Assembly (NCBI GenBank): GCA_965213925.1
Contig: OZ243927.1
Coordinates: 4,320,001 to 4,384,000, forward strand
Reading direction: 5' to 3'
Source of the DNA: Trueperaceae bacterium
GTDB lineage: Bacteria; Deinococcota; Deinococci; Deinococcales; Trueperaceae
Length of the DNA stretch: 64,000 bases
The position numbers were made by a program, and so were the translations under genes. Of the stretch, positions 27,058 to 60,667 are shown one piece after another; positions within the stretch are counted from its first letter, which is position 1, and each line of letters starts with the position of its first letter. The notes under the pieces are model-generated. The model saw only the letters and a list, made by a program, of their open reading frames with translations. It was not told the DNA's origin and did no database searches.

Positions 27058-28227
27058 TTACTGTCCGCCCGTCCCGCCACCCGTTCCTGAGGGTGCGGCT
27101 GGCGCGGCTGGCGCGGCTGGCTGCGGCAAGTTCTCGGGAAAGGTCTCTAGGTCCGCGTTCTCGCGCAAATCGCTGATCGTTTGGCTGAGCCGCTCGTTAG
27201 CGAGCTGCGCGCGAATCTGCTCGCGCACCTCTTCTAAGGGAACCGCGCCCGCTTCGTTTTTGTCCGTCACGCGGATGATATGGTAGCCGAACTGCGTTTC
27301 GACCGGTCCGACCGTTTCGCCGACTTCGGCGTTAAAGGCGGCCTCTTCGAAGGGCTGGACGAACGACCCTCTCGACACGCAGCCGAGGTCGCCGCCGCGC
27401 GCCGCGCTGCCGGGGTCTTGGCTGCGCTCTTCGGCGAGCTGGGCGAAGTCGCCGCCGTCGTTGAGTTGCGTCAGGATTTCGTTCGCTTCGTCCTGAGTTT
27501 CGACTAGGATGTGGCTCGAGCACACCTCTTCCGGCGTCTCGAACTGCGCCTGGTTCTCCCCATAGAAGGTCTGGATCGCTTCGTCACCTACCTCGACCTC
27601 TTCGCGTAGGGCGTTGACGACTTGCTGGATGCGCAAGTTGTCGCGGATGAGCCCGCGAAGTTGCGCTTCGCTCTCGAAGCCCGCTTCGGAGAGGGCTTGT
27701 TGGAAGGCCTCGTCGCTTGCGCCGCCCGTTTCACCGCCGCCAGTGCTTCCGCCCGTCGCGCCACCCGTCTCGGCTTGCGGCGCGCTTCCCGCGAGACCCT
27801 GGCGCACCTGCGTGATCTGCTGCTCGACCTCTTCATCTGAAACCTGGATGCCGCGCGCTTCCGCCTCTTGCAGCAAGACCTGCTCGGTCGCGAGCTGGTC
27901 TAAAAACTGCGGGCGGAGGTTGCCGAGCTGCGCTAAGACCTGCTCGTTGAGGGGCAGACCCTGCTGCGCGGCGATGTTACGTAGCGCGATGCTGAAGCGC
28001 TCCTCGAACTCCTCTTGGGTGATGGTCTCGTCGCCGAGTTGGATAATCGGGGCGTCGGGGTTTAAGTCACCGCCGACGAGGGGCACATCGGTCGTCCCCG
28101 CCGCACCACCGGTTTGACCACCTGTTTGGGCGGAGCCGAAGACGAGAACCGCGAGGGTCGCGAGGATAAGAAGGCTGAAAAGCGCAACGGGTAGGCGCTT
28201 ATTTTTAGGTTGGTTCGAGTCAGGCAT
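27058..28227 (-). CDS. Exported parvulin-type peptidylprolyl isomerase (PrsA/SurA-like) with TGG-repeat linkers
   Basis: N-terminal signal/TM, SHILV, FAQLA..SQDPGSA.RGGDLG, FEEAAF, ETQFGYHII. Confidence 0.9.
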   Translation of the reverse strand: MPDSNQPKNKRLPVALFSLLILATLAVLVFGSAQTGGQTGGAAGTTDVPLVGGDLNPDAPIIQLGDETITQEEFEERFSIALRNIAAQQGLPLNEQVLAQLGNLRPQFLDQLATEQVLLQEAEARGIQVSDEEVEQQITQVRQGLAGSAPQAETGGATGGSTGGGETGGASDEAFQQALSEAGFESEAQLRGLIRDNLRIQQVVNALREEVEVGDEAIQTFYGENQAQFETPEEVCSSHILVETQDEANEILTQLNDGGDFAQLAEERSQDPGSAARGGDLGCVSRGSFVQPFEEAAFNAEVGETVGPVETQFGYHIIRVTDKNEAGAVPLEEVREQIRAQLANERLSQTISDLRENADLETFPENLPQPAAPAAPAAPSGTGGGTGGQ

Positions 28228-28445
28228 GGCGTTCCCTTCGGAGAAGCATCGTTGATTGCGCGAGGTTCACTAATTCGGAAGTATAAAATAATGTAACCGG
28301 ACGCTGCTAGAAAACCCTATCACCTAAAAGATGAGAAAGGGTCGCTCTGGGTAACGCCGGGCTTCATGGGGCATACAAAAATCTCCTCTCGATTTGCCGC
28401 ACTAGATTGCTGGCAAAGGAGAGGAGGTTCAGTTGCTACTTAGCG

Positions 28446-29387
28446 TTACGCCGCTTTCGCTTCGGCTTCGCTCAGCTCGCGCAGTTCCTCGTAGAGTCTG
28501 AGGTGCGCGTCGGTGAGGACTTCGGGGATGGTAGCGCGGATTTCGGCGAGTTCGTCGCCGCGCGTGCCGTCTTTTTTAGGATAGCCCCGTTCGCGTAGCC
28601 GGAACGAGCGACCCGACTGGGTGCCCGCAGGCAGGTTCATCTCCACGTCGCCGTCTAGCGTCGGGACGCGCACCTTGCCGCCCAACGCGGCGACGTAATC
28701 GGGCACATCCACGACAACACGGATGTTGTCGCCCTCGAGCCGAAACACCGAGTGCTCCTCTAACTTGATCGTCAGGTAGAGGTCGCCGCCACTAGGCGCT
28801 TGCCCGCGCAGCCGCAACTTCGCGCCGTCTTTCGCGCCTTTAGGCAGCGTGACCTCCAGGCGGCGTCCGTCGATGGAGATGACCTTGCTGTCGCCGCGGT
28901 AGGCTTCATCTAAAGGCACGCTGATGTCCGCGTCCACGCGGCGGGGCGCTCGGGCGCGTTCTTGCCGCAGGCTACCAAAGGGGTCTTGACCTCTCGAGCC
29001 TGCTGTCCCCGTGCTGGTGAAAAAGCTCTGTCCACCCGCGCCCGCGAAGCCGCCTCCGAAGAGGCTCTGGAAGAAGTCGCTGAAGTCGCCCTCAGCTGCG
29101 CCGCCGGGCGGGGGTCCCCCAAAGCCGCCCCCGAAACCGCCGCCCCCAGAGAAGTTCGGACGCCCCTCGGCGCTGCCGTAGCGGTCGTAAAACTTGCGCT
29201 TCTCGGGGTCGTTGAGAACGGTGTACGCCTCGTTGACCTCTTTGAACCGTTCCTCTGCTGAGGGGTCGTCCGGGTTGCGGTCGGGGTGATATTTGGCTGC
29301 GAGTTTGCGGTACGCCGAGCGGATGTCCTTCTGGTCGGCGCTGCGCGAGATGCCCAGCGTGTCGTAATAGTCTTTGTAAGCAGCCAT
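28446..29387 (-). CDS. dnaJ: DnaJ-class chaperone without zinc finger (CbpA-like)
   Basis: J domain with HPD, G/F-rich region, C-terminal domain, no CxxCxGxG. Confidence 0.88.
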
Positions 29388-29397
29388 TTAGTCCCCC

Positions 29398-30009
29398 TTA
29401 ACTTTGGTAAACGACGACTCTGGCAGGGCGTACCAAGCGCTCATCCTTGACGAAGCCGACTTGCACAACTTCGGCGATGGTGTTTGCGGCGTTCTTATCT
29501 TCGGTCGGGATAGCGGTCAAAGCTTCGTGCACGTCGGGGTTGAATTCGTCGCCCTGTGCGCCCACCTGGACGATGCCCAGCGCTTCCAAGTTGCGTTTCA
29601 AGCTCTCCTGAACGGCTTCTAAGTTTGGGATGAGCTTGCTCGGGTCGTCGCTGCCGACTCTGAGCGCGCGTTCCAAGTCGTCGTAGGTCGAAAGCACGGT
29701 GATGACGGCGCTGTCTAAACCCGACTCGCGGGCGCGAGCGACGTCTTGGGCGGCGCGGCGGCGGTAGTTCTCCAGGTCCGCCCGCGCACGCAAAAAGCGG
29801 TTCTTAAAGTCCGCTGTTTCCTCCTGCGCTTGGCTGAGTTTTTCATGCGCCTGCGCGAGTTCGCTGCGGAGCACCTCGACGTCGGTGACGCCTTCCATAT
29901 CGGTCATGCCTTCGGTCTGAGTATCGGTAGGTGAGGAGGTGACACTCTCGTCAGCCTCCCCTATGATCTCTTCCGCGGTCTTTAGTTTGTCGTCGGTTAG
30001 GTCGGCCAT
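29398..30009 (-). CDS. grpE: Nucleotide exchange factor
   Basis: RARADLENYRRR, FNPDVHEAL, RPARVVV. Confidence 0.95.
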   Translation of the reverse strand: MADLTDDKLKTAEEIIGEADESVTSSPTDTQTEGMTDMEGVTDVEVLRSELAQAHEKLSQAQEETADFKNRFLRARADLENYRRRAAQDVARARESGLDSAVITVLSTYDDLERALRVGSDDPSKLIPNLEAVQESLKRNLEALGIVQVGAQGDEFNPDVHEALTAIPTEDKNAANTIAEVVQVGFVKDERLVRPARVVVYQS

Positions 30010-30012
30010 GAT

Positions 30013-59926: not shown

Positions 59927-60022
59927 CACGCCCAAACGTTCCCTATCGTTCGTGAGCAGCACTGAGACCCGTTGGGAGCACTTTTGGTTGAACTCAAACA
60001 TGTACGAGTGTGTAAAGCCATG

Positions 60023-60050
60023 AAAAAAGGCGAGCACGAAGCTCGCCCTT
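60023..60050 (-). terminator. Intrinsic terminator
   Basis: ggcgagc-ttcgt-gctcgcc-tttttt. Confidence 0.8.
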
Positions 60051-60072
60051 CTACTGATTACGTGAAGAAGGC

Positions 60073-60231
60073 TTAGCCGCCTCCGGTGCTCGAGCCCTCA
60101 GCCGTGCCACTTTCGCTACCGCCTTCGCCGCCGCCCGAAGGGCCGCACGCGGCGAGCGAGAGGGTGAAAACGGCGAACACGCTGAGCAAAACGATTCTAG
60201 GGGAACGGAAAACTTTCATTACATCTTTCAT
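60073..60231 (-). CDS. 52-aa lipopeptide MKDVMKVFRSPRIVLLSVFAVFTLSLAAC-GPSGGGEGGSESGTAEGSSTGGG, absent from the ORF track
   Basis: AAGGAGG RBS, lipobox LAA|C, terminator downstream. Confidence 0.8.
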   Translation of the reverse strand: MKDVMKVFRSPRIVLLSVFAVFTLSLAACGPSGGGEGGSESGTAEGSSTGGG

Positions 60232-60391
60232 TGTTGCCTCCTTATGGGGTACTTTAACGCTCTCACATGAAAACTCATAAAGGATTATATGAGCAACGTT
60301 AGCGTGAGAGCGGCACTGCTCGAGTTACAGACGCCGAGACAACCTCTTAGTATGAGAGCCGTCTCACAGAGTCTGATTATTCGCCAGCTTC

Positions 60392-60667
60392 CTACTCACC
60401 GCCCGTGCTGCCGCCCGTACTACCACCGGTCGCGCCGCCCGTACTGCCGCTCGAGGCTTCACCCGAGGCCTGCTCTTCTAGGTTCTCAGCCTCGTTTTGC
60501 ACCTCTTCGGCTTCACCCGCGACTTCGTTGGCGGCTTCCTCTTCGCTGCCAGACTCTACCGTTGCGGAGCTATCGTTGTCGTTGCTCGCGCCGCCGTCGC
60601 CGGGGCCGCAAGCGGCTAAAGAAAATACGAGTAGAAACGCGCTTAATAGGGCTATCAGTTTTTTCAT
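60392..60667 (-). CDS. Small acidic disordered lipoprotein with a TGG-repeat tail
   Basis: AAGGAGG RBS, lipobox LAA|C, ends STGGATGGSTGGSTGGE. Confidence 0.85.
   Translation of the reverse strand: MKKLIALLSAFLLVFSLAACGPGDGGASNDNDSSATVESGSEEEAANEVAGEAEEVQNEAENLEEQASGEASSGSTGGATGGSTGGSTGGE

Follow-up and report, generated by a model that had tools for sequence, protein, structure and literature searches.

Why should five exported proteins, encoded within one short piece of a bacterial chromosome, all stop one residue past the same three amino acids? The question is raised by a 64,000-nucleotide stretch from a Trueperaceae bacterium (assembly GCA_965213925.1, contig OZ243927.1, positions 4,320,001 to 4,384,000; hereafter the window, in whose own numbering coordinates are given), in which five open reading frames (ORFs) end in Thr-Gly-Gly plus a single last residue (TGG-X). 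A first-pass annotation had drawn attention to them. Here we confirm that the TGG observation is statistically and evolutionarily robust, and we find that the five ORFs are real envelope proteins exported through the Sec or the lipoprotein route. As to function, we favor, at a probability of roughly 40%, the reading that TGG units are O-glycosylation acceptor sites in mucin-like spacers, with an adjacent protein of the Wzy_C family as the candidate enzyme.

Five exported proteins with a common ending

One of the five is an exported parvulin-type peptidyl-prolyl isomerase (PPIase) of 389 aa (27058..28227, minus strand) with SurA_N-like and rotamase domains, eight TGG units and the end GTGGQ. 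On the plus strand lie a secreted 177-aa protein (32375..32908), built of signal peptide, TGG spacer, helical bundle and TGG tail (eight units, end MTGGN), and a 47-aa micro-protein (33241..33384), which is a signal peptide followed by DTGG(MMTGG)4G (five units, end MTGGG). The remaining two, on the minus strand, both have the lipobox LAAC-G: an acidic lipoprotein of 91 aa (60392..60667; four units, end STGGE) with the tail STGGATGGSTGGSTGGE at 60395-60445, and a lipopeptide of 52 aa (60073..60231; one unit) whose mature part is a 24-aa Gly/Ser/Glu-rich tail with the end STGGG at 60076-60090. Each of the five thus carries a signal peptide or a lipobox, and the residue after the terminal TGG is Q in the PPIase, N in the 177-aa protein, E in the 91-aa lipoprotein, and G in both the micro-protein and the 52-aa lipopeptide. 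By eye, a hairpin and a T run stand 3' of four of the five genes. The first-pass annotation had given the same coordinates and endings and had described repeated TGG in these proteins; our recount (8, 8, 5, 1 and 4 by gene position) bears this out.

Among the 568 six-frame ORFs of at least 30 aa in the window, exactly these five end in TGG-X, and the four ORFs with three or more TGG units are all among them. As a control, we took 80 unrelated bacterial loci (1,313,750 bases) with 8,723 ORFs of at least 40 aa. TGG-X endings were found in 0/8,723 control ORFs versus 5/402 window ORFs, and three or more units in 3/8,723 versus 4/402. The control loci are those listed in a scan of genome contigs with the PPIase alignment; their PPIases are distant homologs of at most 42% identity, and neither the genome of the window nor its close relatives are among them. 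In locus L002, from a Trueperaceae metagenome-assembled genome (MAG) of 74% GC, the PPIase ends without TGG. Residue shuffling, a control suggested with the first-pass annotation, gave the same picture for four of the five window proteins, the observed TGG count being reached in 0/20,000 shuffles of each. The single TGG of lipopeptide 60073-60231 was matched by 2,496/20,000 shuffles and is not significant alone. Overall, the five proteins contain 26 TGG in 756 aa (34 per 1000 aa), compared with 10 in 16,166 aa (0.62 per 1000 aa) in 42 other ORFs of the window.

The motif had been proposed to be limited to exported proteins, and in the window it is. A crude screen for signal peptide plus Shine-Dalgarno sequence gave 10 start sites with a Shine-Dalgarno, four of which were dropped (two internal, in a transporter and in gyrA, one of a 33-aa ORF and one antisense to 41323-42528). 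TGG-X was present in 5/6 of the exported soluble proteins kept versus 0/42 other ORFs (Fisher p = 3.5e-6). Lipoprotein 42834-43358 is, as had been pointed out, an exported protein that lacks TGG-X. Cytoplasmic low-complexity regions of the window (the G/F region of DnaJ, the DnaK tail and the GrpE N-terminus) are free of TGG.

All five proteins are real, but their independence had been overstated. The 177-aa gene has, for its 5' part, a partial paralogue in the micro-protein gene (69 nt with 86% DNA identity, at 32424-32492), and lipoproteins 60392-60667 and 60073-60231 have a common lipobox region (E 0.001). Because these two neighbor pairs look paralogous, we count three independent loci rather than five. 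The TGG arrays of the PPIase and of the lipoproteins belong to no DNA repeat family. Antisense Pro-Pro-Val-rich ORFs (e.g., 32353-32874) were rejected as shadows of the arrays; it is the sense frames that have Shine-Dalgarno sites, terminators and homologs.

Selection was said to act on the peptide rather than on a DNA repeat, and this is borne out by varied codons, TGG changes that are synonymous only, and a Thr bias in orthologs. The 26 TGG units are encoded by 15 different codon combinations. Comparison of the paralogous arrays gives 4 synonymous and 0 non-synonymous differences in four TGG units (12 codons), and 3 non-synonymous ones in the 8 codons of the flanking residue x. The residue before Gly-Gly is T in 83 and S in 3 cases in the 10 close-clade PPIases described below, T in 97 and S in 1 in 10 other TGG-rich PPIases, and T in 104 and S in 18 in 16 members of the 177-aa family, where Ser is the chief substitute (MSGG units). 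T and S are about equally frequent overall (6.0% and 4.9%). The residue preceding Thr varies (E, A, G, Q, M, V or D), and x, unit number and tail length drift among orthologs. Thr, both Gly residues and the terminal phase are therefore what selection holds.

Conservation in relatives

The PPIase matches Pfam Rotamase_3 (PF13616, 4.4e-26) and SurA_N_3 (PF13624, 6.9e-18) and is a parvulin-type PPIase with a SurA-like N-terminal chaperone domain. We give it no more specific name because all NCBIfam equivalog scores were below their cut-offs; its nearest named relatives are from a Trueperaceae MAG (48% identity) and Deinococcus (36%). Its translation places TGG units at three sites on the minus strand: an N-terminal spacer QTGGQTGGA (28102..28128) right after the conserved A-Q end of the signal peptide, an internal loop ETGGATGGSTGGGETGGAS (27715..27771), and the C-terminal units GTGGGTGGQ (27061..27087). 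At the signal-peptide end, A33 and Q34 are nearly invariant in 47 orthologs. In the alignment, the internal loop is an insertion confined to the closest PPIase clade.

Conservation in relatives holds for this protein. In the close clade, made up of the window PPIase and nine orthologs of 76-86% identity, 10/10 end in TGGQ, although the tail in front of it is variable. In a further ten orthologs, TGG-rich and about 50% identical, the end is TGGQ (6), GGGQ (3) or TGDQ (1). Orthologs without TGG have acidic or Pro/Ala-rich tails in its place. A Gly-[E/Q/N/D] end is found in 35/48 orthologs without TGG-rich tails (among P0011-P0068) versus 1/52 distant homologs, and because it is kept there, the Gly-X rule must be older than TGG and independent of it. 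The disordered tail with a Gly-X end is thus the old feature of this PPIase, and TGG is its lineage-specific filling. On a tree of the PPIase core (62 rows and 328 columns, with P0020, P0024, P0037, P0053, P0058 and P0060 omitted as truncated or fused), the 19 TGG-rich rows fall into three clades. This requires 3 changes, at least 2 of which are forced by well-supported branches, so the TGG-rich state has been gained or lost repeatedly.

The 177-aa protein, whose gene has a GGAGG Shine-Dalgarno and a terminator, matched nothing in Pfam or NCBIfam. Sixteen members of its family were found, and 11/16 end in GGN, which extends conservation of the ending to a second family. Its N-terminal spacer DTGGMMTGGTSTGGMMTGGMT (32432..32494, plus strand) and its C-terminal tail VTGGGMTGGMTTGGDMTGGN (32846..32905, plus strand) flank a conserved helical core (32510..32821, plus strand). 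In the AlphaFold model the core is a bundle at residues 46-149 (helices 46-54, 62-79, 82-98, 105-125 and 129-149), with block-mean values of the predicted local distance difference test (pLDDT) of 69-83 for residues 61-150. Residues 1-44 and 152-174 have pLDDT below 50, and the TGG units are accordingly predicted to sit in disordered segments. Lys and Arg are absent from the TGG segments. No fold match at E <= 0.001 was obtained in a search of the model against the PDB, no match by tblastn against plasmids, and no usable match in the Atlas search. In one family member (P0122) TGG units link two copies of the helical domain.

The micro-protein gene has an AAGGAG Shine-Dalgarno and a terminator with a 12-bp stem. 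Its mature product is predicted to be a secreted 26-residue peptide that consists solely of DTGG(MMTGG)4G, with 8 Met in 26 residues. When residues 18-47 were searched against all protein representatives, 12 matches were obtained, most of which look like translated simple repeats. The sole match resembling a real exported protein (P0159) has (GEMTGG)n before a C-terminal hydrophobic anchor. This 839-aa protein is unrelated, and its approximately 35 tandem GEMTGG/GEITGG units form a stalk between a Cys-rich domain and the anchor.

It had been remarked that no named family exists for the motif. We likewise found no Pfam or NCBIfam match, and a full-text literature search turned up no description of Thr-Gly-Gly as a motif of exported bacterial proteins; "Thr-Gly-Gly" matches among those listed were, to judge by titles and abstracts, unrelated synthetic peptides and tags. 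The pattern thus appears to be undescribed so far.

The Wzy_C neighbor

Convergent with the micro-protein gene, and ending 122 bp away from it, is the gene of a 677-aa polytopic membrane protein (33506..35539, minus strand) of the Wzy_C family (Pfam, 4.1e-15), which comprises O-antigen ligases and O-oligosaccharyltransferases. H381, H580, N581, R379, R424, R481 and R497 are invariant in 19/19 homologs. Residues 580-594 read H-N-x9-G-x-x-G and match H-[NSQ]-x9-G-x-x-[GTY], a pattern described for O-antigen ligases. As far as can be read from its sequence, the protein looks like a polytopic Wzy_C (PF04932) enzyme with conserved His and Arg in periplasmic loops, as expected of the PglL type.

Orthologs of 67-84% identity lie on contigs of 4,393,473, 30,746 and 50,885 bp. 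PPIase and/or 177-aa orthologs are found on contigs of equal length, which we take to be the same ones; on that assumption, synteny is conserved in the close clade. A Thermus homolog is 29% identical and, with the named relatives of the PPIase, points to Deinococcota as the phylum. Searches of the PDB with the sequence and its profile returned no relative, and the Atlas search returned generic O-antigen ligase clusters only. Residues 1-170 include an N-terminal extension (about 150-170 aa) in which Trp-rich transmembrane segments recur. It is common to six full-length orthologs (67-84% identity, 662-673 aa) and missing from homologs of 40-47% identity (442-539 aa).

Possible roles of the TGG units

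The x-T-G-G units form a clade-specific low-complexity module, confined to predicted disordered segments of the exported proteins. The module is placed after the A-Q end of the signal peptide, in a lineage-specific surface loop, in interdomain linkers and in C-terminal tails, where it stops one residue past a unit (Q, N, E or G after the last GG). In the reading we favor, its Thr would receive an O-linked glycan in the periplasm from an enzyme that uses a lipid-linked donor, and the adjacent Wzy_C-family protein is the candidate. Modules glycosylated in this way would act as hydrated, protease-resistant, mucin-like spacers, and the C-terminal unit could serve as an end-proximal acceptor comparable to the C-terminal Ser/Thr sites of TfpO and TfpM. 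Glycosylation gains circumstantial support because the Wzy_C gene is only 122 bp from the micro-protein gene and near targets in the close clade, because Thr is hardly ever replaced, and because known Wzy_C enzymes act on disordered periplasmic regions and on C-terminal Ser/Thr (PMC12645811, PMC9829042).

Several points weigh against it. The case for a glycan on these proteins is circumstantial, and the acidic or Pro/Ala-rich tails of other PPIases show that TGG is not needed by the tail. In TGG-X the Thr occupies the fourth position from the C-terminus, unlike the last or penultimate acceptor of TfpO and TfpM substrates, and characterized PglL enzymes are near-exclusively Ser-specific and favor Ala/Pro-rich regions (PMC12645811). 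The Wzy_C protein had no PglL_A (PF15864) match in Pfam at E <= 0.01, where only Wzy_C was found, and it could be a ligase or polymerase for a cell-wall polymer instead. When 8,000 prefiltered candidates were scored, 0/19 Wzy_C homologs lay on a contig matching in length the large contigs (5,838,999, 4,498,326, 2,555,839, 1,908,568 and 1,328,060 bp) of the other two TGG-rich lineages. Synteny among relatives of 67-84% identity, finally, may be plain conservation of gene order.

More tentative than glycosylation of these proteins is the idea of a general O-glycosylation system in Deinococcota with a Thr-Gly-Gly sequon, the C-terminal one included. Were the units glycan acceptors, theirs would be the first general O-glycosylation sequon described for the phylum. 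A simple sequence rule could then predict which proteins are glycosylated in this little-studied, stress-resistant lineage, and glycoengineering would gain a new short tag.

Nearly as likely as glycosylation is that the units are unmodified. TGG would then be this clade's version of the hydrophilic disordered linkers and tails usual in envelope proteins, acting as an entropic spacer with ends that resist exopeptidases: an N-terminal Gln able to cyclize, and at the C-terminus a Gly with a last residue that is neither hydrophobic nor basic. Such a C-terminus would be handled poorly by tail-specific proteases and carboxypeptidases. The changing composition of one PPIase tail (acidic, Pro/Ala-rich or TGG-rich, by lineage), its Gly-[E/Q/N/D] end in 35/48 orthologs that are not TGG-rich versus 1/52 distant homologs, and the nearly invariant A-Q at the signal-peptide end all agree with a spacer, as do the TGG units that link domains in P0122 and those that form a stalk ahead of the C-terminal anchor in P0159. 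Disordered linkers are also frequent in lipoproteins (bioRxiv 10.1101/2021.01.05.425367). However, a plain spacer should tolerate Ser, Ala, Asn and Gln, yet Thr:Ser is 83:3 and 97:1 in the two PPIase groups. It also leaves unexplained why this organism avoids the unit in its cytoplasmic low-complexity regions, and why two mature products, the micro-protein and the lipopeptide, are tail only; the protease resistance it invokes is deduced from general enzymology. Even with no modification of the units, the ends of disordered envelope tails would be clearly under selection, given the strictness of Thr, the constant terminal phase and the older Gly-[E/Q/N] end.

It is unlikely that the GG-X end is instead a recognition signal, read by a periplasmic protease, a PDZ protein or a transpeptidase, which would trim off the last residue or attach the protein to another envelope component. 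All five proteins do end in the same phase, one residue past a unit. The last four residues are invariant in 10/10 close PPIases, in tails that otherwise vary, each family has its own last residue (Q for the PPIase, N for the 177-aa family), and two products are small anchored or free peptides consisting of the tail only. On the other hand, X differs between proteins, a candidate enzyme is absent from the window, and identical units after the signal peptide and in loops cannot be C-terminal signals.

The first-pass annotation had also suggested recognition by a transpeptidase or protease; a classical transpeptidase or sortase-type signal is not supported. Signals of the LPXTG/sortase, GlyGly-CTERM/rhombosortase and PEP-CTERM/exosortase systems resemble TGG-X as short conserved C-terminal motifs with T-G or G-G on exported proteins, and they consist of the motif, then a transmembrane helix and a basic tail. 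The TGG proteins, unlike these, end one residue past a motif that recurs at the N-terminus and in loops, and none of the five has a hydrophobic helix or a charged tail after it. As nothing hydrophobic follows TGG-X, known C-terminal sorting signals are excluded. No Pfam or NCBIfam sorting model was matched either; NF058595 scored 21.8 bits against a cut-off of 37, over the signal peptide.

Another possibility, improbable in our view, is that the Met-rich MMTGG/MTGG arrays of the 177-aa protein and the micro-protein bind Cu(I) via Met thioethers or serve as a sink for periplasmic oxidants. It would cover the Met-rich subset only and is compatible with the other readings. Met-rich motifs have been linked with Cu(I). 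Besides the 8 Met in the 26 residues of the mature micro-protein, no residue precedes TGG more often than Met, both in the 177-aa family (49/104) and in one PPIase group (24/97). Against this, the PPIase and both lipoproteins carry TGG units without Met, the window contains no copper or methionine-sulfoxide-reductase genes, and fold matches to copper storage proteins were to generic helix bundles at E >= 0.76.

A very improbable variant is that GG-X is a coupling signal, from which a periplasmic transpeptidase would remove the last residue in order to join Gly-Gly to a wall or envelope polymer. On this view the 24-residue lipopeptide and the acidic 91-aa lipoprotein would be a new kind of membrane-to-wall tether akin to Braun lipoprotein, whose length TGG spacers would set. 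The wall of Deinococcus and Thermus has an ornithine-Gly-Gly cross-bridge, which TGG units resemble, and Lpp is, to our knowledge, absent from the phylum Deinococcota. Tethers of the Braun type are linked to peptidoglycan by a C-terminal Lys, which neither of the two lipoproteins has at its end (GGE and GGG). Chance, base composition or a DNA repeat artefact can be dismissed, even if the 177-aa and micro-protein arrays are one DNA repeat family and the lipopeptide has a single TGG, given that TGG-X is missing from all control ORFs, that shuffles never reach the count for four proteins, that 15 codon combinations are used, that the PPIase and lipoprotein arrays lie outside any DNA repeat family, and that the motif is kept in orthologs down to about 50% identity.

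Other features of the window

Otherwise the window is ordinary chromosomal housekeeping (dnaK-grpE-dnaJ, gyrA, carB, hisZ/G, proS and metG). Besides the Wzy_C neighbor, no envelope-modification gene was seen in it except for one cytoplasmic glycosyltransferase of family GT4, and no tRNA or Rfam family was found. The two DnaJ paralogues (28446-29387 and 46952-48097, both minus strand) share a 125-nt stretch of 71% identity; one lacks the zinc-finger domain and is in the dnaK-grpE operon, and the other has the zinc finger. A Gp49/HigB-like gene followed by an HTH_3 gene (40453-41129, plus strand) is probably a toxin-antitoxin pair.

Two families of dispersed intergenic repeats were noticed. The first (8306-8441, 24739-24792, 26751-26898 and 42594-42739; up to 136 nt) is 90% identical between the inverted copies 8306-8441 and 26763-26898, has the look of a miniature inverted-repeat transposable element or a repetitive extragenic palindrome, and gave no Rfam match. 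The second (16178-16305, 18915-18952, 38448-38558 and 41196-41310) shows 86% identity over 111 nt between inverted copies, with shorter copies elsewhere.

Comparison with known systems

Some systems were set aside at once. Sortase LPXTG substrates were rejected for want of LPx and of an anchor, repeats-in-toxin (RTX) or type I secretion since the proteins carry N-terminal signal peptides, and a ribosomally synthesized and post-translationally modified peptide precursor since the micro-protein has a Sec signal, not a leader. In the actinobacterial protein O-mannosyltransferase (PMT) pathway, Thr/Pro-rich disordered linkers of Sec-exported proteins only are O-mannosylated during export. The likeness lies in Thr-rich disordered segments of exported proteins; unlike TGG modules, PMT linkers have a Pro/Ala/Thr composition and depend on a GT39 enzyme, no gene for which was seen in the window. 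The N-terminal linkers of Gram-negative lipoproteins are also low-complexity tethers right after the lipidated Cys (bioRxiv 10.1101/2021.01.05.425367), but they have no fixed sequence unit and are not C-terminal.

The closest parallels are found among Wzy_C enzymes. According to four studies, all known O-linking oligosaccharyltransferases carry a Wzy_C domain (PMC3643930, PMC9829042, PMC12645811, PMC9239064). Enzymes of the PglL type attach glycans to periplasmic proteins and lipoproteins in their disordered regions, and 21/31 pglL genes adjoin a target gene (PMC3643930). The same source describes the PglL_A motif (PF15864) as separating PglL from WaaL ligases and PilO as also lacking these motifs. 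Like the TGG proteins, the targets of PglL/PglO in Neisseria, Burkholderia and Acinetobacter are many, unrelated, and periplasmic or lipoproteins, and the Wzy_C enzyme is often encoded beside one of them (PMC3643930, PMC12645811). Acceptors are located within disordered low-complexity stretches, frequently close to the lipobox or in the C-terminal tail, as is TGG (PMC3643930, PMC12645811). The difference is in the acceptor itself, which is a Ser in disordered Ala/Pro-rich regions (PMC12645811). Here the segments are predicted to be disordered, but the candidate is a Thr before Gly-Gly in a Gly-rich context.

TfpO (PilO) and TfpM glycosylate C-terminal Ser/Thr of pilins, and all carry a Wzy_C domain (PMC9829042). 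They share with our candidate the enzyme family, a Ser/Thr acceptor at the C-terminal end and an enzyme gene beside the substrate gene (PMC9829042). They differ in having pilin substrates, a last or penultimate site and enzymes of 420-470 aa, as opposed to non-pilins, a Thr at -4 and 677 aa here; none of the five TGG-X proteins matches a pilin family in Pfam or NCBIfam. The TGG pattern resembles the PglL and TfpO/TfpM systems and fits neither. If the glycosylation reading is true, its sequon would be specific for Thr with Gly beside it, in contrast to the Ser/Ala/Pro sites of PglL, and end-proximal glycosylation would extend beyond pilins.

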